A stretch of 64,000 nt of DNA from Antedon mediterranea (Eukaryota; Animalia; Echinodermata): positions 39,566,304-39,630,303 of the forward strand of contig NC_092671.1 of NCBI RefSeq assembly GCF_964355755.1. The letters run 5' to 3'. The notes below the pieces were generated by a model. That model worked only from the letters and a program-made list of their open reading frames with translations. It was not told the DNA's origin and did not search any database. The position numbers and the translations under genes are program-made. Positions 5,471 through 64,000 of this stretch are shown piece by piece (the first letter of the stretch is position 1; each line of letters starts with the position of its first letter).

Positions 5471-7742
<2,272 letters not shown>

Positions 7743-7759
7743 TTCCATATATATGTTCT

Positions 7760-19576: not shown

Positions 19577-19713
19577 AGCTTGGTTCCTATTTGGACGCAA
19601 AGTAAGCGTAATGTAAGCGAATTGACCAATCACACACGACAGTTCGAATAATCCATCGCTTTGATTGGTCAATTCGCATAGGTTGCGGCTCACGTGCTAG
19701 TGGGAACCAAGCT
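19577..19713. mobile_element. Older copy of the same MITE family, shared with copy 2 (~38066-38209)
   Basis: agcttggttcc...tagtgggaaccaagct termini. Confidence 0.7.
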
Positions 19714-19725
19714 TAAACAACTTAC

Positions 19726-38221: not shown

Positions 38222-39697
38222 ACGATAGTAGTTGTTATTGTCATCAACACACCCACAACCCTCTGCTGGCACACATCGTCCATTGGTGTCTAGGAACGTG
38301 TTTGTTTTTGGACATTGGCAGGATGGGACACAGGCAAGACAGAATGGGTAGATAGCGGTCAAGCGCTGCTGACAAGTAGCTGGACCACATGATGCTCCAC
38401 AGGCTACCGGAACTGGATCACATGGACAATCTAGTTTTAAAGATCACACGTTAAAATAATGTTCAGAAACTTTCTTTTAATATAAACTGACTAGACAACA
38501 TAATCATACATTTAATACATTACAATTTCACATAAAGTGTGGAACTGAATTATCAGTTTTTCTTTATCACAACACCCTGAACAAAAAAAAACATAATCTA
38601 CACACATTCAAAATATGTATTGGGGTTTCTACAAGTTGCACACAAAGAAGAACAATTTTATGAGTCAAATGATGGCTGTATCACGACTCATTTTAATAAT
38701 TCATTTATTAGTAAAAATATAAAAATATATATAAATTTTTTTCTTCAAAAGAATTGAAAATACTGGTATGAACTTTGACATACCAGGTGGTGGGATACAC
38801 GTGCACGTTTCACAGCCGTCTTCTTCTTTTTCAAAACCATATTCACATACTACAGGAACAATTCCACAATTCCTAGGCTCGCAGACTGGAACACAGCTAC
38901 ACGTTGGACAGCCGTCGTCGTCCAGTGCAATCTAACGGCTCTTCGCATTCCAGGATTGGGCATACGATGAACTCGTCGTCTACGCATTGACATATATCGC
39001 AGCCATTTTCATCTTGCTGGTAGCCATTATGGCAAAATATACCACAATTAAGAAGGTCTTTACAAGCACCTGGATAATTCAAAAAATATACCTTAAACAA
39101 TTTTAAGCCTTGTCTACACTATCAAACTTTATGTGACAAAAAATGTGATGTGCCCATATATGGACATGATGATGTCATATCACTACCATAGTTGGGTACG
39201 GTATATCACTACCATATTTGGGCACATCACACTTTGGGTTGACAATAAACGACGAGAGTGAAAAACTAGGAAACATAAGAATATTGGAAAAAATGTCGGT
39301 GTTTATCCGAATAAAAATGTCGGTAATGATGGCAATGATTACATTATGGTACTGTATATGATAACGAGACAGACACTTGGAAATGAGTACAGTGGATGCA
39401 ATGATGATGACGATACTGTTGCTGATGATTTAAAAAATAACTTTAAAAGACAACAACCTAATTCACAACAAAAATGTACAAAGAAAATAATTGAAAGCGT
39501 CCTTTGACATTTGTGTGTATCTACAGAAAGTGTATTTTCAGGAATAAAAGCAGTCACAAAAATGTTTAAAATATTCAATACTGTAGAATAAAACGAACAA
39601 AGGGAAAATAAGAGTGTTTAACGAAATAACGAAACTCACCAGCTTGTGAGACCAAAACAATAGTTGACAACAGAATTGAAAAAACGGCGGTGTTCAT
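38222..39697 (-). pseudogene. Frameshifted paralogue of the antistasin+TIL gene; exons 39697-39640, 39069-38784, 38430-38222
   Basis: Exon 2 is 286 nt against 294 nt in copy 1. An 8-nt deletion at ~38925 gives LDCTGRRRLSNV*. Confidence 0.8.
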
Positions 39698-41010
39698 GTT
39701 GACTCGAGAAAGTTTTAAATAATAAAATGGAAATTCAATCATCAATCATCTCCTTATATGTTGTTCTAACCAGGATCTAGTATTATCACTCTAGTATACC
39801 ACATCTTTTCTAGCTTAATATCTTAATATTCCTAAACACTAAGTGTATTACACACTAATTTCTCCATGATCGTATAGCCAGGAAAGTTTTAAGATTAAAA
39901 TTTGTGTAAAAGTAGATTAAACCTTCCTAATAAAATGCACTTGCTATGTCCGGTTCCGTAAAACAGATTAATTATCATCTTTTAGAGAAGCAAATCAAGG
40001 GTCATTGAAGATGTCTTATTATATTGTATTCTATGTATGCATATGTTACGAATGACTTTATTTGGAGAATAAAACTATATTTTCCGTATGATTTTAAAAC
40101 ACATCAAACCACTTTTTTAGGATGTTCACGGTATGTTCACGGTATGTAGCCTACAAAGAAGGCACCACTTGCTCCCTCTAAATACACATTGGGAACGGTT
40201 ACTGAATGTTAAAGAAGGGCTGTTTGATAGCCTTGGTTGAACGAGTAATACTGAGCCTAAATAATCTTTAATGAAATGTCCTACAATACAAAGGAGTTTT
40301 CAAATTCATTTTTTTCCATAATTTCATTTTCTAAAATCTAACAAATTCTAAATGTGTAGACATTCTTTATTACTATAGATTATTCAAAATGGTTTAAACT
40401 TTCAAAAAAAGTGTTTGGTGCCCTCTATATTATTGCAAATTCTACAAAGATGTCACATGTGTAGGTTATCTTTTAACAAACACAATTAACTTATGCTGTT
40501 AATTATTTTCTTTGAGTACTTTTCAACAATGTTAAAAGGTCGATTTGCATCTCCCTTCGGCAAAACCTTGCATAGAATGTTGTGGTATTGCTTTATAATT
40601 ATACAGACTAATTGACAATTTATAAATTTGCCATCACATTATTCAATTGTTCATTATTATGAATTATCCCCATACTTTATTATATTACATATTCTTTTAT
40701 TTAAAATAACCAACATTTAGTTTAATAATTGTAAGCTGTCTGTGGTCGATTGCACTACGTACATTTTTAACATTTGACATCACACACTTTTTCCACACCT
40801 GTTCGTCTTGTACTGCCTGACACTCTCCCTACCACACCCTTTCTCTATATTTTATTGTGGACTGACATAATCAATTCTTATCGTTTCTCGTTTTAAAGAA
40901 GGAAGTATGGTTTAAGTATGTGAACTGATTTTACTTTAAAAAACGTTCATAAAGCGATGCATTCATTCTTGCTCCTTGGTATTATTTAAAACTAATTTCA
41001 GAATAAAAAC

Positions 41011-41103: not shown

Positions 41104-41511
41104 TCTTTTCTTGCCTTTATATATTTGTCTTCTTTGTATTTTATATGGCAGAAAATTGAATAAAAAAAGTACTACTGTTTATTTTATCAATGGTAACGAA
41201 ATGTATTTTAAAAAGTGATCAGGTACGGTATCATACTTGACTGTCGAATAACCAGATGTTACTCTAAAACCTAATGGCATATTTATGGCACTATCAATTG
41301 CACTAGATCCCCCACTACTTGCTCCTTCACATTGACTTTAGTATCAACATTTATGATTGATTATAACTCTGTTAATAAGTGACTTTATCATAGCAAATAT
41401 GATACCTTCATCCCTTGCAAATTCCTCTCTATTTTCCCCATAACGGTCGTATTCTCTACCAGCACGTTGCGTACGTATTACACTTCAAAATATTCGAAAA
41501 GCTGGTGGTCC

Positions 41512-41630
41512 TATATAAAACAGAATCGTAGACTAGTTGACAGAAGTTATGATAGAACTTCTAGTTCTGTCATAGTTGAGATCAATAGTCTTCACTCACC
41601 GACGTGTTTGCAACAGTCAGCACGGTAAGT
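41512..41630 (+). promoter_or_regulatory. Core promoter and non-coding exon 1 of His-rich gene 1, with 5' hairpin
   Basis: TATATAAA at 41512; AGTTATGATAGAACTT at 41545; stem TGATAGAACT/AGTTCTGTCA; donor G|GTAAGT at 41625; acceptor ttcttcag at 42820. Confidence 0.75.
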
Positions 41631-42823
41631 TGAACAAGTATTTAATTTATTTCATTTCAATAAATATTTCAGTGTATTTAAAATAAATACCCCAGGGAAG
41701 AAGTATTTAAAAGCGATAATTAATAAATTATAGCAATCATATTTATTTGAAATTCATAGACAAATATGTATTAAAGTTTATCGTTTTGGAATAATAACCT
41801 CAAATTATGTTACCTCTCTTTATAATGATGAATGATAAAATAATATTAAACACTATGACATCCATATAGGTACAGGTATGTTATTATTTAGTCATTGCTT
41901 TAAGTACCATCTATACGAACAAATAATGAAGGTATGGGTGCAATCAGATGAAGTTTGCTATACATAGATTAGTCACAAAGTCATATATACCGATAAAACT
42001 ATTAACCATTACACTGTATTTCCAAACTTCTAGGCCTATTGAGTTTGTTACTCGTCTTTCGCAAGAATTATATTTTGTTATCTAAATAAATAACGATATT
42101 AAATCTCGTCGTAGCACGGACACCATTTGCAATTCATATTCTCTTTAGTTCGTTATGTTACTCATGTAGGCTTAGGCCTACGGTACTTATACCATTTTGT
42201 ATTCCATGAATTTTCAAATTTCTTCTCCAACATACTGATGTATTCAGACAAACATTTTAGCATAATAAATAAATACACAGGTTAATGTGTGTCTACACGA
42301 TACCTGATGGCTAGTTGATTTAAAAGTAACAAAACCATTGAAAGGGGTTTGACGTATCACAACCTTTTTTACACTGAAAGTTTTGGAAAATAAGGCAAAC
42401 AGAACCTTATACCAAAGCAAAAGTGAATCAGATCAGAGCGGACATTCGGACATTCGGACACAACATTTTAATATTATTATTAATATAATATATTAATAAT
42501 ATTATTAATATCAATGAATTACATAAACATTAATTATTTCTAATCAAACATCAAATGATAACAGCAAGCATTCGCATAAATATATCGGTATTTAATAACA
42601 GTCCTTATACCATCTTAACTTTAATATGTAGGCTATTATTGTACTGATTATTGATTATTATATTTTTATATGAGAAATGGTTCTCGAAACTCGAATTTCA
42701 GACTGTTTGTATCGTTATTTAATGCTTTGTTTATAATGTATCCGTATTTTTTAAATTATACATGAAAGTATTTATACAGTATTGTAACTTATTAATTAAT
42801 AATTGGTTTGTATTCTTCAGAAA

Positions 42824-45800
42824 ATGAAGGTGTTTCTGTTAGCCGCGCTGTTGGGGTGCGTGTTGCTCCTGCAAGTACGCGCTGAATCGCAGTCGTCTGA
42901 CCTGCAGGACGATCAAAATGAAGTCAATTCTCTTGACCTGAAGGTAAACCCAGATTTGGAATCAGCTGACACCAGTGAAGTCGACAAAGACATGTTGGCC
43001 TCATCAGGTTTAGATAACGCACAAGAAATTAGTAAAAGATGTCGGCGACGATCCTTTAGACGCCGTTACAGACGTCGATTTCGTTGCCGTAGACGACGTT
43101 ACAGACGTCGAATAATTAGACGTTCTCGACGACGATACAAAGTACGACGCCTCCGAGTCCAATATTATTGGCGCAGTGGTCGATTCTACAGACTGTGTAG
43201 ACGTGGTCGTCGTACGTATTGGCGTCGTGTAACTTTCAGATGTCGAGGTGGACGTTTCTACTGCCTATACCGACATGGACGTCGACGATATTGGCGCATA
43301 ATGCGTGCATACGTGCGTAACAGACATGTATATGTTCTTCGAGGACGTCGATATATCAGAACATCCACAGTGGTTTCCTCAAGTAGAATTGTCACAAGAA
43401 CCAGTACTGGTGGATATCTCGTTTGGCGTAACAGGCGTTTGTATTTCCGAGTTCGTTATGGGCGTCGTTGGATATGGCGTGTTGTTCGATACAGATGGAG
43501 CCATCGTCGACTATATTTCTATTGGGGAAGAAGATGGCGATTGGTAAGGTGCTACAAACGTGGGGGACGAATGTTCTTCTACCGCAATGGTCGCTACTAT
43601 ACCGGTGGCAGAAGAAGACCAGTGAACCTGTACTTCCGAGGACGACGTCTCTTCTGGACAACCGTCTACCGTGGACGAAGAACATGGCGTCCAGTTCGTT
43701 ATCGATGGATCCGTCATCGTCTATACTTCTACCCAACGTTTGGCCGTCATCGAAGATGGCGCCCTGCTCCAGTTTATTACCGCAACGGTTATATATATGT
43801 CTTCACCAATGGTCGTTACCGTCGTACTGGTACATACCACCCACTCAACCCAAGACGTATAAATATTAATCTTTACTGGCGTGGAAAAAGACTTTACTGG
43901 ACTACAATTTATCATGGACGAAGAGTATGGCGTCCCGTGCGTTACAGGTGGTCCCACCATCGTCTATATTATTACCCACTATTTGGTAGCCGTCGAAGAT
44001 GGCGTCTAGCACCGGTGTACTACCGCAATGGATATGTTTTCTTTTACCGAAATGGCCGCTATTTCAAACGAAGGTTCAGATTTCCTCAACCTCAAACAAC
44101 AGTGTTTTTGTTCTGGCGAGGCAGACGCCTATACTTCAGATGGGTATCACATGGTCGTGTTAGATGGCGAGTGGTGAATTATCGCTGGCGCAATCACCGT
44201 CTGGTGTACTACATGCCATTCGGGCCACATCGTGGCTGGCGTATTGCACCAACATATCAACGAAATGGTCACATTTATATCTACCACAACGGTCGGTATT
44301 TTATAAGTGGAGGCGGTCACCCACACGTCCCCCATAGACCAAGTCGTCCCATGTTTGTTTGGCGCGGTGGCCACCTGTACTATCGATATCGCCGTGGAAA
44401 CCGCTACTATTACCGTATTGTGACAACCAAACGATACCATGGACGGTACTTTTATTACTACGGCAACACATGGCACATGCTAACGTACTACTACATGAAT
44501 GGAGTGTCATACTACTTCCATAATGGTCACTACCTTGTCAAGCATAAAACAGTGATAAAGTATCATCATCATCATCATTATCATCACCATTATCACACAA
44601 GGTTCCATACTAAAATAGTCAAACATCATCACCATCACCATCATGTAAAAATACACAGGATACACCATAACAAATATATCCACCATAAGATAGTACACCA
44701 CCGTGTGGTAAAGCACTACCGATATAAAACAATACACCACCATCATATAAAGCATGTTCACCATCACATACATCACCGTCGTGTTGTAAACCATCTTCGT
44801 ATTAGACACCACTACATCAAACACCATAAATACTATACCCATCACCATCACCATTACCGGCACGTGCACCATCGCCATCACCATCATGTTTACAGAAATC
44901 ACGTGATAACTCGTCATATCAAACGATATCATCACCGATATATCACTCGACTTCATCATCATTATCGTCATTTCCATCACGTAGTAAACCATCATAAGTA
45001 CGTCAACCATGTGAAATATAGACACAGATACGTGAAACACCATCGACACTTTACACATCATCACCATCACTACCGCCATGTTCACCACAAGGTTCACCAC
45101 CATAGATATATAAATCATGTGCGCTACCGACACCAATATATTCGACGTCATCGACGCTTCACCCACCACCATCATCGACATTTCCACATTCACCATCGTA
45201 TACACCACCATAAATATATAAACCACGTCAGTGTACGACACGTGAACATAGTTCGTCATCGTCATCTTGTCCACAACCATCACCATTACCACCATTACCA
45301 TCACAGACACCATCACCATCGGTACATCAACCATGTTAGCACAAAACATATTTATGTAAAACATAACAGATACCTTACCCATCATCACCACCACTACCAC
45401 CATTTCCATCACAGAATACACCACCACCGGTATATCAACCACGTTATAAACCGACACAAATATATTCGACACCATGTCCACTTGACTCATCATCATCACC
45501 ATTACCATCACTACCATCACCGACACCACCACCATAAGTACGTCAACCATGTGTTGGTACGTCACAAGTACGTCAAACATAACAGATATCTGACTCACCA
45601 CCATCATAAATTCATTCACATTCATCATAGAATACATCATCACCGTTATGTCAACCATCTCCGTATACGTCATCGGTACGTGAAACACCACACGCACATC
45701 ACACTTCACCATCACCACCACTACCATATTCACCATAGGATCCATCATCATCGAATTGTCAACCATGTAATTACCCGCCATCACTACATCCGGCACCATC

Positions 45801-48800
45801 GTTACTTGACCCATCACCATCACCACTACCATCATATTCATCACCGCCTCCATCACCATCGGTACATAAACCATGTGATCACAAAACAACATTATATCAA
45901 GCATCATGTTCATATAACCCATCACCATCACCACTACCACCACATCCACCATAGATTGCACCATCACCGTACCTACACACACGTACTTACCCGCCACAGA
46001 TACATCAAGCACCACCGTTATTTCACCCATCACCATCACCATTACAAACATTACCACCACAGAATTCACCACCATCGTTACATTAACCATGTACTAACAC
46101 GCCATCGAAACCTGTACCGTCACCGACATGTGACCCACCATCACCATCATTACTACCATCATCACCACAGAATACATCACCACCGATATATCAACCACGT
46201 AATTACACGTAACATTTATATCAGACATCACAAGCATTACACTCATCACCACAACCGATTCATCCATATTCAACACCGAATCCAACACCACCGATATATA
46301 AACCATCTCCGTGTTATCTACAAATATCTCTACAAAAACCGTTACATTACACGTAATCATAAACAATACTTTAACATATACCACCGTATTAGGCATAACA
46401 AAATAATTAACCATCTTCGAATTGTTCATAGATATATAAGAACAAATGTGTACCGACATTACAACCATCATAAATACTTCCACTTGCACAAGCATTACCA
46501 TCACCACCGATACGTCAACCATGTCATAACACGTCATCGAAATATATACAGACACCGACACGTGACACACCATCACCATCACTACTACCATGTCCACCAC
46601 AGACTTCATCACCATAAATACATCAACCATATCTTGTACCGACATAAATACATAAAACACCACCGTTATCTGACATACCACCATCACCATTACGTACACG
46701 TACATCACCGTCTCCATCATCACCGTTACGTCAACCACGTGCTCACACGTCACAAGAATATATATCGTCACCGATGGGTAACTCACCACCATCACCATTA
46801 CCGACACATTCATCACCACAGACATCATCACAAATATGTTAACCATGTGATCACACGTCACCATAACGTTTACAGACATCATTACATCACGCACCACCAT
46901 CACCATTACCATCACATCCATCACCGACTCCACCATCACAAGTTTGTAAACCATGTGGTAATGCACCATCGCTATATTAAACACCATCGATATCTGACAC
47001 ACCATCACCACAAATTTATTCATATTCATCATCATATCCAACATCACCGATACGTTAACCACTTGAAAGTACGTCATCGGTATGTTAAACACCACAGATA
47101 TTTGACTCATCACCATCATAGAACAATCCATATCCACCATCGCATACATCATCACCGCACTATTAACCACTTGCTTGTAAGACACCATAATATAGTAACT
47201 CACCGCTACTTGACACACCATCACCACCACTACCGTCACATCCACCACAGAATCAATCACCATAAATACATCAACCATTTGCGAATCCGTCACAAATACC
47301 TATACAAACATCGATACTTGACGCATCACCATCATCACTACCACCACCATCACCACAGAATTCATCACCACCGTGTTATCAAACACTTAAGAATACAGCA
47401 TCGGTATATCAAGACTCACCAATACCTCACCCATCACCACCACCATTACCGCCATATTCATCACAGGATTCACCATCATCGTGTAGTGAACCATTTGCGT
47501 ATCAGACACAAATATATATACAAACATCGTCATGTGACCCACCATCATCACCACTATCACCATCACCACCACACGCACCATCATCATCGCTATGTAAACC
47601 ACCTTAAAATCAGTCACCGATACATAAGAACCAATCGGTACTTGACACATCACCATCACCACTATCACCACCATCATCACATTGTAAACCACCATCGAAT
47701 CGTTAACCACCTTCGTGTCCGACATCGATACGTGAAACACCACACATACCGTACCCATCATCACCACCATTACCATCACTACCACCACAGATTCCACCAT
47801 CACCGTTATATAAACCATGTGCGTACCAAACATGTGTATCATCGTCATCATCAATACCTAACTCATCACCATCACCACTATCACCATTACCATCATAAAC
47901 TGCATCACCACCGCTACATCAACCGTGTCATGGTGCATCATCACTACATCAGACGTAATCGCTACGTAACTCACCATCATCACCACTACCGTCACATTCA
48001 CCACCGACACCATCACCATCGATACATCAACCATATCAGAACCAAACATGTGAACGTATACCGACACCGATATCTAACCCACCACCACCATCGTACCATC
48101 CATCTGCATCACTGGCACCATCATCATCGGTACTTAAACCATATGCACGTGCGCCACAGGTACATCAAGAGGCATATCTACCGAACACGTCACCACCATC
48201 ACTACCGACATTACCACCACCATATTACCCATCATCGTACCGTGCATCATACTAAATTCCACTTGAAGACTATCTATCACCATAAATTTTTAACGCATCA
48301 CCACCATATCTTCAAGACTCTACACCATCACCATCATCATCACCGTACCATCCATCATCGACGAACCATCTACAAGTACAAATACCATCACCACTATAAA
48401 CATCATCACCACCACCACTACCACAAGCACGTGAGTTCATCGCATCATCATTTCCACATGGGATTCCATGGATCATCTTTGAACGTGTTCTTTAGCTGGC
48501 GTGGTGGACATATGTACCATAGAGTACGAATACACGGACGATACACATGGCAGATTGTCAGAACCCGTATGCGAAACCACCACATGTATTATTTCACAAA
48601 CGGTAGATGGTACATCGTTCCCAACTACACCCGTAATGGCCGCTTTTACTTCTATTTGGATGGTCGATACAGTTCCAATCCCATGCCATCCGGTGGCAGA
48701 TTTAGCATCCGATATTTCAGTACAAATGTAAGAATAATCTTCAGAGGTGGACGCATGTATTATCGCTATCCTTATGGCCGAGGCTATCGTCTACGACCCG

Positions 48801-49333
48801 TACGTTTCCGAAGAAGACACGGTCGCTTCTACTACTGGACCGGCAAAACTTGGCAATTCGTTCCTTTCTATAGAATCAACACAACTTACTTCTACTACAT
48901 AAATGGCCGATACTATCCATTCGGTGTCAGTGGTGGTAGTAGCAGCTACAGCAGCTTCAGCAGTGGAAGAATCTCTTTCCATAGACCATACGTATTCTGG
49001 AGAAGAGGTCGTTTCTACTGGAGAACAGTAAGAGGTGGTAAAACATATTGGCGTCCTCTTCGCTACAACCGTTACCGTGGTCACTACCGCTACTATTACG
49101 GACGACGATGGCATTGGGTTAATTACTACGTTAATGGAAACAGATACTACTTCTGGTTAAATAACCGTTACCATTCCGTTCCGTATAATTTCTCTCGTGG
49201 GTTCCATGGGTTCGGTAGATTTAGTCGTGTATACCGCTCATATGTTACAAGAACCGTTGGGCCAATCCACCGCCACTTCGTATCACATCGATATGGTCAC
49301 ATTAGACGATTTATTCATAGATTCCGTCGTTAA
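42824..49333 (+). CDS. Giant secreted His-rich, Arg/Tyr-rich repeat protein 1 (2169 aa), family not recognised
   Basis: Uninterrupted 6.5-kb frame. ATG at 42824 just after an acceptor; signal peptide MKVFLLAALLGCVLLLQVRA; acidic segment ending ISKR; 6+3 R/Y/W modules around a 36-aa His repeat core; aataaa at ~49442 and ~49530. Confidence 0.9.
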   Translation: MKVFLLAALLGCVLLLQVRAESQSSDLQDDQNEVNSLDLKVNPDLESADTSEVDKDMLASSGLDNAQEISKRCRRRSFRRRYRRRFRCRRRRYRRRIIRRSRRRYKVRRLRVQYYWRSGRFYRLCRRGRRTYWRRVTFRCRGGRFYCLYRHGRRRYWRIMRAYVRNRHVYVLRGRRYIRTSTVVSSSRIVTRTSTGGYLVWRNRRLYFRVRYGRRWIWRVVRYRWSHRRLYFYWGRRWRLVRCYKRGGRMFFYRNGRYYTGGRRRPVNLYFRGRRLFWTTVYRGRRTWRPVRYRWIRHRLYFYPTFGRHRRWRPAPVYYRNGYIYVFTNGRYRRTGTYHPLNPRRININLYWRGKRLYWTTIYHGRRVWRPVRYRWSHHRLYYYPLFGSRRRWRLAPVYYRNGYVFFYRNGRYFKRRFRFPQPQTTVFLFWRGRRLYFRWVSHGRVRWRVVNYRWRNHRLVYYMPFGPHRGWRIAPTYQRNGHIYIYHNGRYFISGGGHPHVPHRPSRPMFVWRGGHLYYRYRRGNRYYYRIVTTKRYHGRYFYYYGNTWHMLTYYYMNGVSYYFHNGHYLVKHKTVIKYHHHHHYHHHYHTRFHTKIVKHHHHHHHVKIHRIHHNKYIHHKIVHHRVVKHYRYKTIHHHHIKHVHHHIHHRRVVNHLRIRHHYIKHHKYYTHHHHHYRHVHHRHHHHVYRNHVITRHIKRYHHRYITRLHHHYRHFHHVVNHHKYVNHVKYRHRYVKHHRHFTHHHHHYRHVHHKVHHHRYINHVRYRHQYIRRHRRFTHHHHRHFHIHHRIHHHKYINHVSVRHVNIVRHRHLVHNHHHYHHYHHRHHHHRYINHVSTKHIYVKHNRYLTHHHHHYHHFHHRIHHHRYINHVINRHKYIRHHVHLTHHHHHYHHYHHRHHHHKYVNHVLVRHKYVKHNRYLTHHHHKFIHIHHRIHHHRYVNHLRIRHRYVKHHTHITLHHHHHYHIHHRIHHHRIVNHVITRHHYIRHHRYLTHHHHHYHHIHHRLHHHRYINHVITKQHYIKHHVHITHHHHHYHHIHHRLHHHRTYTHVLTRHRYIKHHRYFTHHHHHYKHYHHRIHHHRYINHVLTRHRNLYRHRHVTHHHHHYYHHHHRIHHHRYINHVITRNIYIRHHKHYTHHHNRFIHIQHRIQHHRYINHLRVIYKYLYKNRYITRNHKQYFNIYHRIRHNKIINHLRIVHRYIRTNVYRHYNHHKYFHLHKHYHHHRYVNHVITRHRNIYRHRHVTHHHHHYYHVHHRLHHHKYINHILYRHKYIKHHRYLTYHHHHYVHVHHRLHHHRYVNHVLTRHKNIYRHRWVTHHHHHYRHIHHHRHHHKYVNHVITRHHNVYRHHYITHHHHHYHHIHHRLHHHKFVNHVVMHHRYIKHHRYLTHHHHKFIHIHHHIQHHRYVNHLKVRHRYVKHHRYLTHHHHRTIHIHHRIHHHRTINHLLVRHHNIVTHRYLTHHHHHYRHIHHRINHHKYINHLRIRHKYLYKHRYLTHHHHHYHHHHHRIHHHRVIKHLRIQHRYIKTHQYLTHHHHHYRHIHHRIHHHRVVNHLRIRHKYIYKHRHVTHHHHHYHHHHHTHHHHRYVNHLKISHRYIRTNRYLTHHHHHYHHHHHIVNHHRIVNHLRVRHRYVKHHTYRTHHHHHYHHYHHRFHHHRYINHVRTKHVYHRHHQYLTHHHHHYHHYHHKLHHHRYINRVMVHHHYIRRNRYVTHHHHHYRHIHHRHHHHRYINHIRTKHVNVYRHRYLTHHHHRTIHLHHWHHHHRYLNHMHVRHRYIKRHIYRTRHHHHYRHYHHHITHHRTVHHTKFHLKTIYHHKFLTHHHHIFKTLHHHHHHHRTIHHRRTIYKYKYHHHYKHHHHHHYHKHVSSSHHHFHMGFHGSSLNVFFSWRGGHMYHRVRIHGRYTWQIVRTRMRNHHMYYFTNGRWYIVPNYTRNGRFYFYLDGRYSSNPMPSGGRFSIRYFSTNVRIIFRGGRMYYRYPYGRGYRLRPVRFRRRHGRFYYWTGKTWQFVPFYRINTTYFYYINGRYYPFGVSGGSSSYSSFSSGRISFHRPYVFWRRGRFYWRTVRGGKTYWRPLRYNRYRGHYRYYYGRRWHWVNYYVNGNRYYFWLNNRYHSVPYNFSRGFHGFGRFSRVYRSYVTRTVGPIHRHFVSHRYGHIRRFIHRFRR

Positions 49334-52300: not shown

Positions 52301-52854
52301 CATAACATTTTGATGACATATTGTTTCCTTATAACTTGTTCATGTCTCTTATTTTGACTGTCTATTACTCTTCTCCGTCTGGTGCTACTTTGATTCAATT
52401 TTACTGTGTTTTAAAAAAAAAAAAATCTTTATATATTTTTTTATTTTTGTAAATCCAAAGGTAAATTACTGAAAAATGACTATTCAGTGGGTATTAGTAG
52501 CTGGATTCCAATGGAGAAATAAAATAAGCAAAAAGCTAAATCAAAACGATAAAATAAAATAGCCAGAAAAATTAGCAGAGCTTTCGGGCAAGACTAGCCC
52601 TTTAACAGTGCAAGTGAGAGTACTTGGACAGAATTGAGAATATAAAGCAGACAAGCGCTGCTTGAGTGGACTAGAATAAAAAAAATAAAAACAAAGGAGG
52701 CACAGGCTGGTTAATAGAGGGTGGAGAGAGTAACAGTAACAAACAATGGTAGATATAAACAATTTAGGAAAATGGAACTTTCGAGAAATTCGAGACTCGC
52801 TTTATAAATTTAACCATTACAAATGACATACAGTAAATTAATCATGGCCAGTTA

Positions 52855-53375
52855 AGTATAATTAATAGAAAACTAAACTAGAGGGTACTCCGAGAGTACA
52901 AACCTCAGCCTCAGTATAATTAATAGAAAACTAAACTAGAGGGTACTCCGAGAGTACAAACCTCAGCCTTAGTATAATTAATAGAAAACTAAACTAGAGG
53001 GTACTCCGAGAGTACAAACCTCAGCCTTAGTATAATTAATAGAAAACTAAACTAGAGGGTACTCCGAGAGTACAAACCTCAGCCTTAGTATAATTAATAG
53101 AAAACTAAACTAGAGGGTACTCCGAGAGTACAAATCTCAGCCTTAGTATAATTAATAGAAAACTAAACTAGAGGGTACTCCGAGAGTACAAACCTCAGCC
53201 TTAGTATAATTAATAGAAAACTAAACTAGAGGGTACTCCGAGAGTACAAACCTCAGCCTTAGTATAATTAATAGAAAACTAAACTAGAGGGTACTCCGAG
53301 AGTACAAACCTCAGCCTTAGTATAATTAATAGAAAACTAAACTAGAGGGTACTCCGAGAGTACAAACCTCAGCCT
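52855..53375. repeat. 58-bp tandem array, 9 copies
   Basis: agtataattaatagaaaactaaactagagggtactccgagagtacaaacctcagcctt. Confidence 0.97.
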
Positions 53376-53892
53376 ACTGTAAAATTTCCTTACATAAAAT
53401 GTCACCGGAAAATATCTATATATTTTTACATTTTTTTTTAATTAGTTGTAAGTGTAAATAGGCTAACTGCACACTACAAAGTTGTGGATGAGAGTTTGGT
53501 GTAATGGTTATGTATCCAGCCTCTCACAGTTGAGATCGCTGGTTTAAGCCCCGCTGAGGTTTTTTTTTGTGGACCTTGATCTTTGACCCTGACCCTTCAA
53601 AATTTAACCACAATTACATGATGAGTCATTGGTCTTTGTGGATAAGTTTGGTGAGAATCGGATAAAAACTGTGGTCTCTAGGCAGTAAAATAGGTTTTTG
53701 TTAGTTGTGACCTTGACCTATGACCTTTTCCCTTCAAATTCGAACTCGTCCGAGCTTTTGGGGTATAGATCATTGTGGCCAAATTTGGTGAGAATCGGAT
53801 AAAAACTGTGGCCTCCAGCCTGTTCACAGACAGACAGACACACACACAAACATACAGGGGTGAAAATATAATCTCCTTGGCGGAGGTAATAA
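53339..53892. mobile_element. Helentron/DINE-like non-autonomous element
   Basis: Left end actaga-gtactc/gagtac-aacctcagcc; tgacctt subrepeats; (GACA)n tract; right end ctccttggcggaggtaata. Confidence 0.6.
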
Positions 53893-54922: not shown

Positions 54923-57900
54923 TTAATAGGAATAGGATGATGAACTGGAGGAAGAGTGCCAGCTACCACCACCAGAACCACCGGAGCTGGAACTGGAATG
55001 AAAAGATGAAAATCCACCGCTTACGAAGTGTCCGCCTCCAGACACGCCGCCAGTTTGAATGTAACGTCCGTTGTGAAGGTAATTCAAACGCCCATTTTTA
55101 ATGTAACTGCGCATAAGCATCCATCTAGCGGTTCGGCCGTTTTTCCATAAGAAGTAAAAGCGACCATGACGTCTTCTATACTTGACAGGGCGCCATCTGT
55201 AACGGTGATTGCCAAACTGCAGACGGGCGTAGAAACGTCCGTGCCTCCAGTACATGGTGGCGCTTGTTCTGATCACACGTGTTCTGAATGATGAGATTCT
55301 AGCCCGATAATATCGACCATTGTGTAAGAAGTAATAGTACCCACCGCTTGTGTAGCTTCTTACTATGCTCCATCTACGACTTCTGTTACGCGCGGGCAAT
55401 GCGTACAAAATACCATTTCGTCGACGGTACGTTACTCTAATAAGGGTAGTACGCCTACCACGACGGTATTTGTAGTATAGAACATTATTTCGCATAACAT
55501 ATGGGGTGTATCGGATTCTAAACTTCATATGACGGGGATGTGTTCGATAACGGCCATGGGAAAAACTATAGTAACGGTTATTCATTCGATAAAATCTCAT
55601 CAAATGCCATCTGCGATTCCAGAGGAAGTAGTAGCGACCGTGACGTTTACGGTAGTTGACTGGTCTCCAGCTGGGTCGTCCTCTTGGTCCTCTTACAGCA
55701 TAGTAGAATTTTCCACCTCTCCAGTAAAATTGTCTTGGGTAGTTGGACTGCCTAAATATAACTTTGTTATATCGGCCATTTGACCAATAGTAGTAAACAC
55801 CTCTGCGTCTGTAAAACATAGTGAACACCCAAGTTTTACCATTCCAGTAGAACAAACGACCATGTTGTCTGCGGAATCGGACGGGTCTTAGTCGGCGTCC
55901 AAATCTGTAGTAGAGTCGGTTTCCACGCCAATAGACATGGCAAAGGCTGGGGTTAAAACGTCTCATTCGTGGCCTATATTGGGGCTGTAGATAATAACGG
56001 TTATTGAACCAGTAGTAATAGCGACCGTGGTTGTTATAGAAGTTTACAGGGCGCCAAGTGTAACGACCGTGGGATGGCCAGTAATAGTAGAATCGTCCAT
56101 GAATGCGGCGATAACGCACTGGTCGCAACATGTAACGACCACCTCGTCGGACGTAATAGTACAATCGATTATTTTTCCACATAATAAATGTGTTGCGTTG
56201 AATGTAGCCAGGGCGATATCTAACCATGTAGTGACCATTATTCCAGTAATAGTATCCACCATTGAGGTTGTAGGAAGTCACATAGTGCCAGGTGTTATTG
56301 TAAAAATAACTTAGGCGACCGTGGTGCTTTCGGTAACGAACAGTGGTCCATACGTAGCGGTTGCCCCGTCGAACACGATAGTACAAACGTCCATGTCGCC
56401 AGGAAATATTAGCTGAATAAGAGTAGGTATGGTGGTGTACATGACGGTAATGGTGGTGGTGATGGTGAAGATGATGTGTTTTGTGCACGTGTTTGGTCAC
56501 TCTTCGTACGTGATACTTGTGTTTGACGTGGTAGTGATGGTGATGACGGTGTACGATGTGTCGATGGTAAACATGCTGGTGATGGATGCGGTTCACGTGT
56601 TTGTAGACGTTTTGGTGATGGTACTTATGGTGTACTTTATAGTGGTGATGGTAATGATGGACTCGATGCCTGTGGTGCACGTGTTTGTAATGCACTATCG
56701 TGATTCGATGTGTGATTATTTTGTGGTGATGACGATGGTGCGTATGGTACACGTGATGGTGATGGTGTACGTAATGACGATGGTGTAGATGTCGGTGATG
56801 TGTAACAAGTATGTTGTGTCTTATGAGACGATGGTGGTATCTATGGTGCACGTGGTGGTAATGGTGGTGGTGATGGATGTTGTGATGGTGGTGTACATGG
56901 CGATGATGCGTTGTTAGAATATGATGATAGATGTGGCGATGGTGGAATCTATGATGAACATGGTGGTAGTGATGATAATGGTGGATGCGATGGTGATGGT
57001 GCACGTGTCGGTGGTGCGTAATTGTGATGTGGTGGTGGATGGTTCTGAGATGGTATCGGTGATGGGCGTGGTAGTAATGATGGTAATGATGTATACGGTG
57101 ATGATGGTGGATGTGACGATGATGTCTTACGTGAATGTGGTGCACAATTGTACGCAGATGGTATCTATGGTGTACGTGGTGCCGGTGGTGGTAGTGATGA
57201 ATATGATGGTGGTGATGCACATGTCGGTGGTGTGTTGTGACAATATGGTGGACAACGGTACGGTGATGGAATCGGTGGTGAGTGTGATACACGTGATGGT
57301 AATGGTGGATATGATGATGATGCTGCATGTGACGATGATGCGTTACAGTAACATGATGCAGCACGGTTCTAAGGTGATATTTATGATGTACATGGTAGTA
57401 ATGATGATAGTGGTGGATGTTGTGACGATGGTGGACATGTCGGTGATGTGTTATACGAATATGATGAAGGACTGTTTTCAAATGGTATTTGTGATGTCTG
57501 TGGTAATAATGGTGATAATGGTGGACATGATGGTGGTGATGGAGATGTCGGTGGTGTGTAACGGTCACGTGGTGATACACAGTACGTGTGTGGTACCTAT
57601 GGTGGATATGGTAATTGTGGTGGTAGTGGTGGATTCGGTGAATGTGGTGAAGATGCCTGTGATGTGTTATACGAATATGATGGTAAATGGTACGGTGATG
57701 GTATCTATGGTGGGCGTGGTAGTAGTGATGGTAGTGGTGAACGTAATGCCTGTGGTGCAGGTTTTTGTGGTGCGTAATATGAATGTGATGTACGATTGTT
57801 CGGAGATGGTATCGGTGATGAGTGTGGTAATGGTGATGGTAATGATGGATGTAATGCGTGTGGTACAGGTGTCGGTGATGAGTTATATGTATGTGATGAG

Positions 57901-60900
57901 CCACATATCGGTGGTGGTATCTGTGATGGGTATGGTAGTAGTGGTGGTAATGGTGAATGGCATGTCGATGGTGCAGATGCTTGTGGTGTACCACGTTAAT
58001 ATGGTGATAAATATGTCGGTGATGGTATCGGTGATGGGTATGATAATGGTGATGGTAATGATGGATCTGGTGGAAGTGATGGACATGTTTATGATGCAAC
58101 ACATTTATGTGGTGGTAGACGGTACGGTGGTGGTATCTATGGTGGATATGGTAGTAGTGGTGGTAATGATGGATATGGTGATAATGATGAATGTGTCTTC
58201 TGTGGATCACATTAATGTGATGTAGGACCAGACGATGATAATATCTGTGGTGAGTATGGTAATAGTGATGATAGTGATGGATATAGTGTCGATGATGTAA
58301 GTGTCGGTGATGTACTATAGTTATATAATTGTATATATTTCTGTGGTGGAATCTATGGTGAACATGGTAATGATGATGGTGGTGATGGATATAATGGCGA
58401 TGGTATCTATGTAGGTGATGGATAGTCTTGATGTGGGTAACTATATACCGAGTGATATACCTATGGTATCGATGATAGGTATGTATATAGTGGTGAATGT
58501 AATACCGATGGAAAACGTCTTTAATGTGGTTAACGGTAACATGGACATACACTATTCGTTTACGGTAATTATGGTGCACGTGGTAGTAGTGGTGGTAGTG
58601 ATGAATGTAATGCTTGTGGTATATATGACGATGGTGTGAATAAGTTATATAGTGATATACATTTCGGTGATGGTATCTATGGTGGACATGGTAATAATGG
58701 TGATAATGGTGGATGTGGTGTCGGTGGTGCAAATGACGGTGATGCACAACAGTTATATGGTGATATATGGTGCGATGGTGGTACCTGTGGTGAACATGGT
58801 AATAATGGTGGTAGTGATGGATAGCGTGACGGTGGTGGACATGCCTGTGGTGGGCAATGTGGATATGATGGTAAATGGTACGATGGATATACCGATGGTG
58901 TCGGTGGTAGTAATGATGATAATGATGGATGTAGTGACGATGGTGTAAATGACGATGGTGAATTATTTTGATATGGTGGTAGATATGGCGGTGATGGTAT
59001 TTATGGTGAACATGGTAATAGTGGTGATAATGATGAACGTAGTGGTGATGATGAAGGTGGCGATGATGTGTTATTTTAATGTGATGCCTAATATGTCTAT
59101 GGTGGTATCTGTGGTGAATATGGTAATAATGGTGATAGTGATGGTGATAATGTCTGTGGTGCAGATGACGACGATGGAGGACGTGGATATGGTGTACCAC
59201 GGTACGAAGGTGGTATCGGTGATGAACGTGGTAGTAATGATGATAGTGGTGTACATAATGCGTGTGATGTACGTGTCGGTGGTGCAGAGTGTGTATATGG
59301 TGGACTAAGAGTCGGTGATGGTATCTATGATGGACATGGTAATAATGGTGATGATGGTGTATACGGTGATGATGGTGCACGTGTTTATGGTGCACTATAC
59401 GTATATGGTGATAGAAGGTACGGTGATGATATTTATGGTGGACATGGTAGTAGTGGTGGTAGTGGTGAATACGATGGTGATGATGCACGTGTCTATGGTG
59501 GGTCACGTGGATATGATGGTAAACACGTCGATGGTGGTACCTATGGTGAATGTGATAGTAATGATGGTGGTGATGGATATGGTGATGATGGTGACGGTGA
59601 AGGTGGTGCGTTATCAAACGATGGTGATATATGATACGATGGTGGTAGCGGTGATGAGTGTGGTAATAATGATGATAGTGGTGGTGGTAATGACGATGGT
59701 GTAAGTGACGGTGATGATTTATTGTGATATGGTGTCTAATGGTATGCAGGTGGTATCTATGGTGCACATGGTGAATATGGTGATAATGATGAATAGTGTG
59801 TCGGTGGTGCACGTGCTTATGGTGATTCACACGAATATGGTGAAGGACTGTGTGAAGGTGATACCGGTGGTGAACATGATGCCGATGGTGGTAATGGTGA
59901 ATATTATGGTAATGGTGTCGGTGTCGGTAATGCGTAACATGAATATGGTGTATTATGTTACGGTGATGATACCTATTGTGAATGTGACGGTAATGGTGGT
60001 GATGGTGAATTATATGCCTATGGTATATATGCCTGTGGTGATTATAACGGAGATGATGGTACACATGACGGGTGTGGTATCGATGAGTCACGTGATAGTG
60101 ATGATGATAGTGGTGTCTTAGGTGAGTATGGTGCTTATGACGGTGTAAAGTCACGTAAACATGACGATTCTTGATAACATGATGATAGCGATGATGGGTG
60201 TGTATCAGATGCTTATATTTGTGGTGATAATGATGATGGTGAAGATGCACGTGTCGAATGCGCACCTTTGTTTTGTAGTGATGCACGTGGTGATGGTGAT
60301 GCCTATGCCTGTGTATAATATGTGTGTGCGTCAAATAATGACCATGGTTGTAATAGTAGTTGCGGCCGTTCAAATAGTAATAACGGACAATATGCCATGT
60401 TTTGTGGCCTCCGTAACCCCACCAAAAGTAGTAGCGGCCATGCACTTTTCTGTAACGGACCAGGCGCCAGGTATAGCGGTTGTTATGATACCACCGCATG
60501 TACAGACGTCCGCCACGGAATCTAAAACGAAGAGTTCCGATCGAAGGCCTAAAGTTGTAACGACCATGGTTCCAATAGTATGTGCGTCCATTGATAGTGT
60601 AATAGCGAACAATGGACCAGATATATCGGTGGCCTACGCGATGGTAGTAGTATGTGCGTCCATGATATCTTCTATATTTGACAGGACGCCAGCGGTAACT
60701 GTTTCCAACACGATAGCGTAAGTAGAGGCCATTGCTACGCCAGTAAAAATGAATCTGTCCATTTGTGCGATAGTAGGTTACACTAACGCTAGGAAGCCTT
60801 AATCTTGGGTAATATTGGTAGCGACCATTTCTGAAGATGAACATTCGTCCAAATATTCTAATATTATGAACCAAAGACCAGATGTACCGTCTTCCTACAC

Positions 60901-61513
60901 GTCTCCAGTACAAGAATCTGCCACCGGATCGTCTGAATCTCACCACTTGCCATACATATCGGCCACCTCTCCGTCGAAAGATGTACAGACGGTTGTTTTT
61001 CCACTGGAAGAATGTTTTGTATCGACGGGGACGGTAGGAGGAAGTGCGATATCTTCCATGACTCCAAAAGTACCTTCGTCCTCTAGATGTAAAGGCTCTT
61101 ACCAAAACCCATCGGTAACGGCCTCCCCAGCGCATGAAAACATAAATGCGACCACGGACTACGCGTTGTCTTTTAAGGTATCGGTTGAAGTACCGACCGC
61201 CTCTTCGCCAGCGGACATACATACGACCACCACGTCTGTAAAACCAGTAACGTACCCGGTAAATCTTTTTATAACGTCTTCTTCGTGAAGGTAGACGATA
61301 ACGTACTACCTTGGTGCGCGTATGAGTAAGTGAATACTTGTCTACGTCATCGACATTATTGGACGATTCACTCACATCTGGTCTGCTGGCGGACAGAATA
61401 TCTTTGTCGACTTTATCGACAGCATCTTCAGTTCGACTTACTGGTGCTTCGGAGAGTGAACTGTGTACTAAGACGATGCACCCAAACAGAAAAACCAACC
61501 GAATCACCGACAT
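54923..61513 (-). CDS. Giant secreted His-rich, Arg/Tyr-rich repeat protein 2 (2196 aa), paralogue of protein 1
   Basis: Signal peptide MSVIRLVFLFGCIVLVHS; acidic segment with VDKDIL; 4+6 R/Y/W modules around a 36-aa His repeat core; Gly/Ser tail; acceptor ttttgacag 9 nt before the ATG. Confidence 0.9.
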   Translation of the reverse strand: MSVIRLVFLFGCIVLVHSSLSEAPVSRTEDAVDKVDKDILSASRPDVSESSNNVDDVDKYSLTHTRTKVVRYRLPSRRRRYKKIYRVRYWFYRRGGRMYVRWRRGGRYFNRYLKRQRVVRGRIYVFMRWGGRYRWVLVRAFTSRGRRYFWSHGRYRTSSYRPRRYKTFFQWKNNRLYIFRRRGGRYVWQVVRFRRSGGRFLYWRRVGRRYIWSLVHNIRIFGRMFIFRNGRYQYYPRLRLPSVSVTYYRTNGQIHFYWRSNGLYLRYRVGNSYRWRPVKYRRYHGRTYYYHRVGHRYIWSIVRYYTINGRTYYWNHGRYNFRPSIGTLRFRFRGGRLYMRWYHNNRYTWRLVRYRKVHGRYYFWWGYGGHKTWHIVRYYYLNGRNYYYNHGHYLTHTHIIHRHRHHHHHVHHYKTKVRIRHVHLHHHHYHHKYKHLIHTHHRYHHVIKNRHVYVTLHRHKHHTHLRHHYHHHYHVTHRYHTRHVYHHLRYNHHRHIYHRHIIHHHHHYRHIHNRYHHRNIIHHIHVTHYRHRHHYHNIHHYHHRHHVHHRYHLHTVLHHIRVNHHKHVHHRHTIHHYHHIHHVHHRYHLHTIRHHITINHHRHLHHRHYHHHYHHYYHTHHRYHHRIIYHHRLITHHLHRHHHHHIHHHHHYYHIHHRYHHRRVYHHIHVTHHRHVHHHHRIHHYHHYYHVHHKYHHRTFYHHIRIVHHKHVHHHHRIHHHHHYYHVHHRYHHRLLVHHIHTLHHRHVHHTHYVHHYHHYYHVHHRYHLRTVVHHIHVLHRRHLHHRHYHHHYHHYYHIHHRYHHRHIRHHIKITHHRHLHHHHYVHHYHHYYHVHHKYHHRHIYHHIKIIHHRHLHHRHYIHHYHHYYHRHHRYIHRTIYHHIHIAHHRHVHHRHAIHHYHHYYHVHHRYHHRTIYHHITVVHHRHLHHRHHIHHYHHYYHVHHRYHHRNVYHYITYSHHRHIYHKHYIHHYHHYYHVHHNYRKRIVYVHVTVNHIKDVFHRYYIHHYIHTYHRYHRYITRYIVTHIKTIHHLHRYHRHYIHHHHHHYHVHHRFHHRNIYNYITIVHHRHLHHRHYIHHYHHYYHTHHRYYHRLVLHHINVIHRRHIHHYHHIHHYHHYYHIHHRYHHRTVYHHINVLHHKHVHHFHQIHHYHHHYHTHHRYHHRHIYHHINVVHHKHLHHRHAIHHYHHYYHTHHRYHHRYVAHHIHITHHRHLYHTHYIHHYHHHYHTHHRYHLRTIVHHIHITHHKNLHHRHYVHHYHHYYHAHHRYHHRTIYHHIRITHHRHLHHIHRIHHYHHNYHIHHRYHTRTVYHHVTVTHHRHLHHHHHVHHYHHYYHRHHKYHLKTVLHHIRITHHRHVHHRHNIHHYHHYYHVHHKYHLRTVLHHVTVTHHRHMQHHHHIHHYHHVYHTHHRFHHRTVVHHIVTTHHRHVHHHHHIHHYHHRHHVHHRYHLRTIVHHIHVRHHRHIHHHHRIHHYHHYYHAHHRYHLRTIHHHITITHHRHVHHHHRIHHYHHYHHVHHRFHHRHIYHHILTTHHRHVHHHHNIHHHHHYHHVHHRYHHRLIRHNILVTHHRHLHHRHYVHHHHHVYHTHHRHHHKIITHRITIVHYKHVHHRHRVHHYHHHYKVHHKYHHQNVYKHVNRIHHQHVYHRHIVHRHHHHYHVKHKYHVRRVTKHVHKTHHLHHHHHHYRHVHHHTYSYSANISWRHGRLYYRVRRGNRYVWTTVRYRKHHGRLSYFYNNTWHYVTSYNLNGGYYYWNNGHYMVRYRPGYIQRNTFIMWKNNRLYYYVRRGGRYMLRPVRYRRIHGRFYYYWPSHGRYTWRPVNFYNNHGRYYYWFNNRYYLQPQYRPRMRRFNPSLCHVYWRGNRLYYRFGRRLRPVRFRRQHGRLFYWNGKTWVFTMFYRRRGVYYYWSNGRYNKVIFRQSNYPRQFYWRGGKFYYAVRGPRGRPSWRPVNYRKRHGRYYFLWNRRWHLMRFYRMNNRYYSFSHGRYRTHPRHMKFRIRYTPYVMRNNVLYYKYRRGRRTTLIRVTYRRRNGILYALPARNRSRRWSIVRSYTSGGYYYFLHNGRYYRARISSFRTRVIRTSATMYWRHGRFYARLQFGNHRYRWRPVKYRRRHGRFYFLWKNGRTARWMLMRSYIKNGRLNYLHNGRYIQTGGVSGGGHFVSGGFSSFHSSSSSGGSGGGSWHSSSSSSSYSY

Positions 61514-62621
61514 GGTTCTTAACTGTCAAAAAAATTTAAAAAAATAAAATTAAATTACTGTATGTAATATTACTAAAGTTTCGACAATATACTACTATAC
61601 TGTAGGTATACTACTGTTGCTAAGGCTACTTTTATTTACTAATACTACCACACTTAAAATACCATGCGTTTTATTATTTGTCAATACTAAATGACAGTTG
61701 CAAGCTTGAAAATACATTTGGGCATAATCGCATTTTTACTATCCGGACAAATTGTTATTATATAAAAAAAATAGTTTAATAGTGCATTTCTTTAGTTGTA
61801 AATTTAGTAGTTTAGTAGTAGTTTAATCATGGATGGCGTAAATGGAGAAACAACGACTACACATCAAAGGGACGGTCAAAGGGACGGTCACATCAAAGGG
61901 ACGGTCAGTGGTATGCAATACCAAACTGCCAAACCCGAATCAAGGTAAGTAATTACTAAATATGATTGTACTCTAAATGACTAGACGTATTCCACTGAGG
62001 AAATAGGCCTGTAATAAATACAGTACCCTATATCCTATATTAATTAATTAAATAATAATGTAGTAGTATTGCAAGTAATCTAATAGCTTACTACTTATTG
62101 TTTTTATACAATATTTTTTGAACTAGAAAACACAAAGCTCTTCGAGGTTCCAAACGAGTTCTTATTATTTTTGGACAGAATTTGTTGTAATATACTGCAA
62201 TTTGGTGTGGACTATGTTCAATATACATAAATATCTTATGAAATTTAATTTGGCCGAAATATCTATACAATTGTGTATTACTGTGTATATAGACGCTAAA
62301 TAAGCATACATTATGTTTATATACGCCTGTATCTATCTTACTCTGCGTACACAAGTTCTAGTTAACGACCATTATCGCTTTGCAAACCAATCTAAACAAG
62401 ATATTTACTAAGAAATTTAAAATATTTATTTTCAAACTTGCGATTTGTTATTTTACTTTCTGTTTCCTAAATAAACTATTCCTGTCATCGTTTATAATTA
62501 CAATTCCAGTATATAATTGATGGCAAGGATCCTGCATAAAAAAGTTTACAATTATGTTTTCGCAGGACCCTTTTACATAAAAACATAAAACATAGCAATT
62601 ATAAATATTTGTTTTAGTTGA

Positions 62622-62738
62622 ACTTACCTATGTCAGATAGGAACCAGCAAGTTTGTCTCAGTTGATCTGTGTTCTGATAGAACTTAGTGGAAGTTCTATC
62701 ATAACTCCTGGTAAAATTGCTAATTGTTCATTTATATA
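62622..62738 (-). promoter_or_regulatory. Core promoter and non-coding exon 1 of His-rich gene 2, with 5' hairpin
   Basis: Minus strand TATATAAA 62738-62731; AGTTATGATAGAACTT from 62706; perfect 11-bp stem within 62675-62701; donor AG|GTAAGT at 62627. Confidence 0.75.
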
Positions 62739-62984
62739 TGACAGGGCCACTTGTTTACTTAACTTGAGTGTTGGTCTTACATTCTACGGGTAGTGTGTGG
62801 TATTAAGTGTCAAAGCAAAGAGTTCATATGCACAATTGTTTCAATAGATTTGTTTCTTGTGAAGTGATCGTTTTGATTTATATCCCCATATGTTCTTGTT
62901 AATTAATAATTATACATTTGACTTTACCACTTATATTTGGCTTTGCAAAAATTGCAAAAACGTTTCTTCAGTTCGTTTTCTGTA

Positions 62985-63116
62985 GAACTAATTAACCGAT
63001 AATAGGATATAGAACTGTTAATAGGTTATAGGACCGATAATAGGATACAGAACCGATAATAGGTTATAGAACTGATAATCGGATATAGAACCGTTAATAG
63101 GATACAGAACCGATAA
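62985..63116. repeat. ~19-bp degenerate tandem (gaaccgataataggatata)
   Basis: 6-7 visible units. Confidence 0.8.
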
Positions 63117-63799
63117 AATACACTCACTGGCTTAATACATACATAAAATACACGCGGCACAGAAGCGGTCCACATATTTTGTGAATGTTGCGTAAAACTG
63201 TTAACATTATTGATATCATACAAATGTTACTAATCCTTGTTCTACTTATTTTGAAAATAAATGGTAGATATGATCGGAAAATAATATGAATGTGAAACAC
63301 TAGGTTTATTGTCCCATCTATTAAAAAATATAAACCTGTTTTAATGTTGACATTTGAATAAATATTTCAGTAACAGCAACAACATTTATGTACAGTATTA
63401 CAACATTCAACTGGATCATTTTTATCATAAACTTATATTAAAACACTGTTACTAAAAAAGTTTGTAGAAGTAGAGGGCGCAGTGGTGATTTTTAAAGACA
63501 AATATTCTACAAATTGAAAATAAGATTAAAACTTGTACAATCAAATGTATATAGGAACAGACACGTTAATAATTACACTAACTAGCAGAGCCTGCTTCAG
63601 AGCTTTCAGAATCGACTCATGTTTCTACTTGAAAATTAATAATTAGCAAACATTTTTTTCGGATTTTGAACCAAATAAATCATTTAAAAATATGATATCT
63701 AGAGTATACAAGAGCCTAATTGATGGTACCTTGTTGACTTGTCTCTTACCAGCATATTTGGATATGTGTACCACTTGAGGTATACAAGATTACGGGCCT

Positions 63800-63920
63800 T
63801 ATATAAATGACAGACCGTTGAAAGCTGGTACAAGTTTTGTTAGAACTTGGTTGTTCTAGCTTACTACAGTGAGGTAACAGCGTATTTCATAAACCGTCAA
63901 CCGGACATAAGCAGGTAAGA
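63800..63920 (+). promoter_or_regulatory. Third copy of the promoter/first-exon cassette; predicted CDS lies beyond the window
   Basis: TATATAAA at 63800; AGTTTTGTTAGAACTT at 63833; stem GTTAGAAC/GTTCTAGC; donor CAG|GTAAGA at 63915. Confidence 0.65.
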
Positions 63921-64000
63921 ATTAAACTTCTCAATACTTTATGACATTTTATTTCATTTTGATTAACAAATTCGGGAACTATTATTACTAATAGAAACAT

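Follow-up and report, generated by a model that had tools for sequence, protein, structure and literature searches.

The closest described counterparts of the proteins encoded at this locus are the histidine-rich biomaterial proteins Nereis NVJP-1, Glycera MTP, the squid beak HBPs, mussel mfp-4 and the His domains of the PreCols, which are secreted, repetitive and about 27-30% His, features that the proteins predicted here share. NVJP-1, with 27 mol% His, is described as beta-rich at seawater pH and as forming fibrils with Zn, and the squid beak HBPs as phase-separating under the control of His (PMC9999432). Gly makes up 36% of NVJP-1 and 20-35% of the HBPs, and the masses lie at 32-90 kDa where that source gives them (PMC9999432). 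Another system of interest is RTMP1 of chitons, reported to carry a signal peptide and a Trp/Phe-rich beta region adjoining a His-rich region (PMC6351634). With regard to gene arrangement, the nearest model is offered by the human bidirectional promoters, described as pairs with starts within 1,000 bp of each other, mostly at CpG islands and poor in TATA boxes, and with TATA at both starts in one of 1,369 pairs (PMC2559893).

In this work we have analysed a window of 64,000 nt from the crinoid Antedon mediterranea (contig NC_092671.1, positions 39,566,304 to 39,630,303), where two ORFs, one on the + and one on the - strand, face each other. Each of them is preceded by the same series of upstream features:

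41457..41464, + strand: upstream box of gene 1, at -55
41512..41519, + strand: TATA box of gene 1
41545..41624, + strand: predicted non-coding exon 1 of gene 1, with 5' hairpin (z -3.07)
41625..42820, + strand: predicted intron 1 of gene 1 (1,196 nt)
42824..49333, + strand: ORF of gene 1, P0001 (2,169 aa, single exon)
62785..62792, - strand: upstream box of gene 2, at -54
62731..62738, - strand: TATA box of gene 2
62628..62706, - strand: predicted non-coding exon 1 of gene 2, with 5' hairpin (z -2.97)
61523..62627, - strand: predicted intron 1 of gene 2 (1,105 nt)
54923..61513, - strand: ORF of gene 2, P0002 (2,196 aa, single exon)

The initial annotation had put the two first introns at about 1.2 and about 1.1 kb, and the lengths listed above agree with it, both of them as predictions. 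P0001 consists of a signal-like start, an acidic pro-piece, a Cys/Arg stretch, six Trp/Arg/Tyr repeats, about 30 His units and three more Trp/Arg/Tyr repeats, and P0002 of a signal-like start, an acidic pro-piece, four Trp/Arg/Tyr repeats, about 32 His units, six Trp/Arg/Tyr repeats and a Gly/Ser tail. The His-rich unit is 36 residues long and the Trp/Arg/Tyr repeat roughly 72. At the N-terminus, the hydrophobic stretch reaches a best 11-residue hydropathy of 2.97 in P0001 and 3.29 in P0002, and 14 of 15 Asp and Glu residues of P0001, and 11 of 12 of P0002, fall within the first 70 positions, with a basic site after the acidic piece. These features predict that both proteins are secreted. Each has a mass of about 285 kDa and a pI above 11, and they are 38% identical to each other. 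Neighbouring His units keep identities of 0.67, 0.77 and 0.41 at codon positions 1, 2 and 3 in gene 1, and of 0.74, 0.81 and 0.42 in gene 2, so that they differ mostly at third positions, as expected from real protein genes and not from open satellite DNA; judging by this codon pattern, both genes are under selection at the protein level. A profile of the Trp/Arg/Tyr repeats found 19 HMM matches in the window, all of them within genes 1 and 2, with no additional repeat elsewhere, and in a tree of these 19 repeats just one of 16 branches was starred, which leaves most of it unresolved. Derivation of the His units from the Trp repeat was also considered and rejected (hhalign probability 0.03%).

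When compared with the jaw and beak proteins, P0001 and P0002 have an equally high His content (26.6% and 30.0%, respectively), but they lack the Gly-His motifs and the 20-36% Gly of that group, since Gly amounts to 3.5-3.6% overall and to zero in the His region. Moreover, they differ in their mass, in their strongly basic pI and in the Trp/Arg/Tyr domain flanking the His units, and no sequence match to the His-rich jaw, beak or mussel proteins was found. The Gly content thus speaks against membership of the jaw and beak family, and we would say that these proteins may work like them, not that they belong to them. RTMP1 resembles them in the combination of a signal peptide with a Trp-rich beta region joined to a His-rich one, but it is presented as a Gly/Ser-rich protein of 539 aa with one WF region (PMC6351634). 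RTMP1 did not appear among the profile matches, a negative that counts only if the libraries searched include it. From composition and analogy, P0001 and P0002 would likely build a metal-hardened material. If they do form a secreted material, it would be a Gly-free His-metal biomaterial of an echinoderm, made of proteins roughly three or more times as heavy as the jaw and byssus proteins of the cited source.

Structure prediction with AF2 gave an all-beta meander of eight strands for the Trp repeat (pLDDT 90) and one long strand for each His unit (best pLDDT 72, range 42-72 across models). Fold searches with either repeat model returned no match at E 0.001, a result that does not in itself show a new fold; fold comparison reached a best Z of 3.2, none of the 48,161 chains attaining a Z of 5, and the Atlas offered no usable feature match to either of the two queries (maximum TM by query 0.25). 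The aromatic beta-hairpins with Gly turns recall those of WW domains and of choline-binding/CROP repeats, but none of the matches was significant: one of the 19 repeats matched WW at E 0.14 and one WW_2 at E 0.034, the best WW match among PDB sequences was weak (E 0.01 over 18 positions), the choline-binding domain was found by Foldseek at E 0.43 with a TM of 0.21, and the choline-binding and CROP entries stayed at a TM of about 0.2. The resemblance is likely convergent.

A single relative came out of the homology searches. The profile built from the 19 Trp/Arg/Tyr repeats, run against 1.84 billion representatives, detected at E 1e-09 an uncharacterized protein of 342 aa from A. mediterranea itself (XP_071965392.1, here P0124), which shows a hydrophobic start, an acidic pro-piece, a Cys/Arg-rich stretch like that of gene 1 and two Trp/Arg/Tyr repeats, and is 30% identical to the N-terminal parts of both P0001 and P0002. 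Unlike these two, P0124 is much shorter and has no His repeats. Its existence indicates that the family extends beyond the window and that its members vary in their build. As a separate observation, residues 68-156 of P0124 form a protamine-like Cys/Arg run within a predicted secreted protein, a shorter version of which follows the basic site of gene 1. Two further candidates (P0125 and P0126, E 5e-04 and 8e-04) covered about 28 positions in unrelated bacterial-type repeats and were dropped as chance matches. Pfam gave no family for P0001 and P0002 at E values up to 1 and none for P0124, the C-terminal region of P0002 had no homolog among 830 candidates, and the repeat profile had none among 7,985. 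Altogether, the sequence searches revealed no relative outside Antedon, and none in Pfam or the PDB. No description of the family was found in the literature searched, a scope that leaves most subscription journals outside, and within these databases and this literature the family is undescribed.

Upstream of gene 2, and pointing away from it, a third and divergent copy of the set of motifs that precedes genes 1 and 2 is found close to the end of the window:

63747-63920, + strand: cassette 3 as a whole, third copy of the upstream layout of genes 1 and 2
63747..63754, + strand: upstream box, at -53 from the TATA box, an 8-mer identical to that of gene 1
63800..63807, + strand: TATA box TATATAAA
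63833..63914, + strand: predicted non-coding exon 1, its start set at the A of AGTT (TATA+33)
63915..64000, + strand: first 86 nt of the predicted intron 1 of gene 3, with donor GTAAGA, continuing past the window end

The sequence TATATAAA starts at 63800 (+), 62738 (-) and 41512 (+) in the three copies. The 16-nt hairpin core follows at +32 in cassette 3 and at +31/32 across genes 1 and 2, with two differences from the core common to these genes, and the predicted donor G/GTAAGA (63914/63915) lies at TATA+114, as compared with 112 in gene 1 and 110 in gene 2. A fourth common element, TACC[AC]G[CT]A, is placed at -55, -54 and -53 in gene 1, gene 2 and cassette 3, respectively; the window contains 14 copies of it, and just these three of the 369 TATA-like sites have it at that place. 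In this way, the order and spacing of the four elements (-54 box, TATA box, hairpin core and donor at +110 to +114) are the same in all three copies. There is no ATG inside the predicted exon 1 of cassette 3, and the 86 nt beyond its donor are rich in A+T, contain stops in each of the three frames and look intronic. The initial annotation had described a cassette directed away from the gene 2 promoter, with about 1.06 kb between the TATA boxes, and both statements hold: cassette 3 lies on the + strand and gene 2 on the - strand, and the TATA-to-TATA distance is 1,062 nt. The cassette is, moreover, truly paralogous to the promoter/first-exon unit of genes 1 and 2.

The degenerate core pattern has exactly three matches on both strands of the window, but it was composed with all three copies already known, and for this reason a separate test was done with genes 1 and 2 alone as the query. 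Of the 4,256 windows of 180 nt that were scored, cassette 3 ranked first once self matches were set aside (130.5). Behind it came the cassettes of gene 2 and gene 1 themselves, matched on the reverse strand (118 and 105.5), and the best unrelated window scored 101. In pairwise comparisons, cassette 3 scored 74.0 with gene 1 and 51.5 with gene 2, and these two 81.5 with each other. With the TATA box excluded, the downstream side of cassette 3 scored 67.5 against a maximum of 50.5 among 363 other TATA-like sites, and the upstream side 30.5 against a maximum of 25. We also compared the copies block by block, with 300 shuffles for each pair (in the order gene 1-gene 2, gene 1-cassette 3 and gene 2-cassette 3). 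The core was significant in every pair (0, 0 and 0 shuffles reaching the score), the TATA block in two of them (34, 2 and 0), and the proximal upstream block, in local alignment, just for gene 1 against cassette 3 (300, 2 and 172), with no significant pair for the far upstream, remaining exon and intron start blocks (42-286 of 300). Nor could intron 1 of gene 1 be aligned as a whole with that of gene 2 (39 of 100 shuffles). A hairpin of 8 bp occurs in cassette 3 at the same position as in the other copies, though weaker (z -1.11, with 27 of 200 shuffles as good, against 1 and 0 of 200 for genes 1 and 2), and no Rfam match was obtained between 40500 and 64000. More generally, inverted repeats stand right after the inferred start in the three predicted transcripts (41545-41580, 62670-62706 and 63833-63861), and those of genes 1 and 2 include an ATG that lies four bases away from the inferred cap. 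This inverted repeat could be either an RNA hairpin or a palindromic DNA site.

As to what cassette 3 stands for, we regard it as probable that it serves as the working promoter and non-coding exon 1 for a third family gene, the coding exon of which would be found past the window end. The cassette itself is very probably functional: its elements have been conserved while the intervening and flanking DNA decayed to background, which points to selection on a working promoter, and the fact that genes 1 and 2 are so far diverged as proteins suggests that keeping these elements needs selection on a transcribed gene. A chance combination of common motifs in AT-rich DNA is hardly credible. It is true that TATATAAA and GGTAAG occur 19 times each in the window, and that one unrelated TATA-donor pair with similar spacing exists at 18818 (-), but none of the 363 background TATA sites attained the cassette 3 scores, and neither did any shuffle (2,000 for each side, 300 for the core), which effectively refutes it. 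More serious, even if improbable in our judgement, is a remnant promoter of a dead or truncated third copy, with no intact ORF after cassette 3. Its two core changes and a hairpin that is no better than shuffles are what a duplicate promoter in early decay could look like, the region is prone to duplication, with a nearby 18-kb tandem duplication that left an amylase copy truncated by an early stop, and no third large paralog turned up in the protein searches, a weak point given that genes 1 and 2 are likewise absent from the protein collection. Against this, the TATA box, the -54 box, the donor and all the spacings are intact in a cassette whose flanks are at background with respect to both other copies; a promoter dead for as long as those flanks have been drifting would have lost its elements, and therefore this explanation fits a recent death only.

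If cassette 3 is functional, a family gene behind it is highly likely. The alternative at this point, which we consider doubtful, is that a duplicated promoter and first exon drive an unrelated gene or a non-coding RNA in the same cells; exon 1 is non-coding in the three copies and could be joined to any downstream exon, and no link between cassette 3 and a family ORF lies inside the window. However, both of the other cassettes in the window precede family ORFs, and a promoter, first exon and donor are usually duplicated together with their gene. Taking again the reading of a third family gene, its ORF would start about 1 kb past the window end, as proposed in the initial annotation, an estimate that derives from two intron lengths only. 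Gene 3 could be built as a His-rich giant or as a short form similar to P0124, since the existence of a short paralog without His repeats means that it need not be giant. P0124 as gene 3 itself was rejected, because it sits on a contig of 22.3 Mb, and the amylases of the window on one of 40.9 Mb.

The head-to-head arrangement of gene 2 and cassette 3 involves two further features:

62739..63799, no strand: intergenic region between the TATA boxes of gene 2 and cassette 3
62994..63126, no strand: 19-bp minisatellite within this region (133 nt)

A shared divergent promoter region, also put forward in the initial annotation, found no support here: a TATA box and a -54 box are present separately on the two sides, and 1,127 nt lie between the inferred starts of gene 2 and gene 3 (994 nt without the minisatellite). 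Human bidirectional promoters are similar in being head-to-head and about 1 kb apart, but here the distance falls outside the 1,000 bp of their definition, TATA boxes occur on both sides and the DNA has 30% G+C. The intergenic DNA has no significant likeness to the kilobase upstream of gene 1 (9 and 28 of 100 shuffles), and no common distal motif was found in it. Nor does it resemble its own inverse (40 of 100 shuffles), and the origin of gene 3 by recent inverted duplication of gene 2 was rejected for this lack of self-inverted symmetry. Gene 1 carries its cassette without any divergent partner; a candidate partner, the TATA at 41123 (-), was rejected as it has no cassette behind it. We infer, as the simpler reading, two separate TATA promoters standing back to back, and a third promoter placed head-to-head is ordinary anatomy for a gene cluster. 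The common cassette makes it likely, from the sequence elements, that gene 2 and gene 3 are co-expressed.

A possible sequence of events can be proposed for these proteins. The signal peptide would send them into acidic granules, where the acidic pro-piece would offset their charge and then be cut off at the basic sites, following the furin-type cut rule for such sites. Upon release into seawater, the histidines would lose their charge and bind Zn or Cu, and contacts between Arg and aromatic residues, together with the long beta-strands, would compact the protein into a dense secretion, either hardened or adhesive. Through their common elements, gene 2 and gene 3 would probably be active in the same secretory cells. 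Candidate sites of expression are the adhesive pit of the larva, the embryo's attachment to the pinnules, the papillae of the tube feet and the saccules. In this regard, the larva is reported to attach by an adhesive pit and the embryos to stay on the pinnules of the mother (PMC11336682), and the saccules are described as bodies of high refractivity whose function is unknown (bioRxiv 10.1101/2024.08.14.607903) that autofluoresce and stain with sense RNA probes too (PMC9793003). A dense polycationic aromatic protein could be, as a guess, the cause of both the autofluorescence and the staining. The broadest version of this idea, a family confined to crinoids whose members are giant, polycationic beta proteins rich in His and aromatic residues and bearing a new repeat domain, arranged in a cluster of at least three genes under one cell-type cassette and making the contents of the saccules, strikes us as a long shot, although if true the cassette would be a molecular handle on these bodies. 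To our knowledge, the family of Anneissia has no saccules. Beyond any given site, a third promoter would enlarge a protein family found nowhere outside Antedon in our searches, and three diverged copies single out the promoter elements under selection, through which the expressing cell type could be found.

The rest of the window holds several features of its own. A tandem duplication (16165-22550 and 34195-40126, about 18 kb apart, with 76-90% identity by block) includes a gene for an alpha-amylase, together with DNA that has an exon for an antistasin domain. Of the two amylase copies, the first ends at an early stop (483 aa) and has nothing corresponding to the C-terminal extension found in the second (741 aa), from which it differs by a frame change just before its stop. 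Two named amylase proteins of A. mediterranea match these genes, XP_071941612.1 with 100% identity in both exons, and XP_071941611.1 with 100% identity in two exons and 96% in another. Near 22100 (-), a start resembling a signal peptide, which is probably exon 1 of the antistasin-domain gene, runs into a long microsatellite of trinucleotide type (20795-21870) that is open in several frames on both strands. Satellite arrays were found at 8660-11840 (unit of 132 nt), 14354-15590 (55 nt), 22562-23400 (17 nt) and 52739-53490 (58 nt). Near-identical copies of the end of a reverse-transcriptase/endonuclease-like ORF at 6415-7764 (-) and 31030-31551 (-), with no Pfam match at E 0.001, presumably come from a Penelope-type element, and two ORF fragments at 23809-24865 (+), equally with no Pfam match, are taken by us as the end of a LINE element. 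Finally, an ORF of 689 residues at 2346-4412 (+) combines an integrase fragment, a hint of a Tf2-type SH3 domain and an OTU protease domain, which makes it a likely LTR retroelement with an OTU domain.
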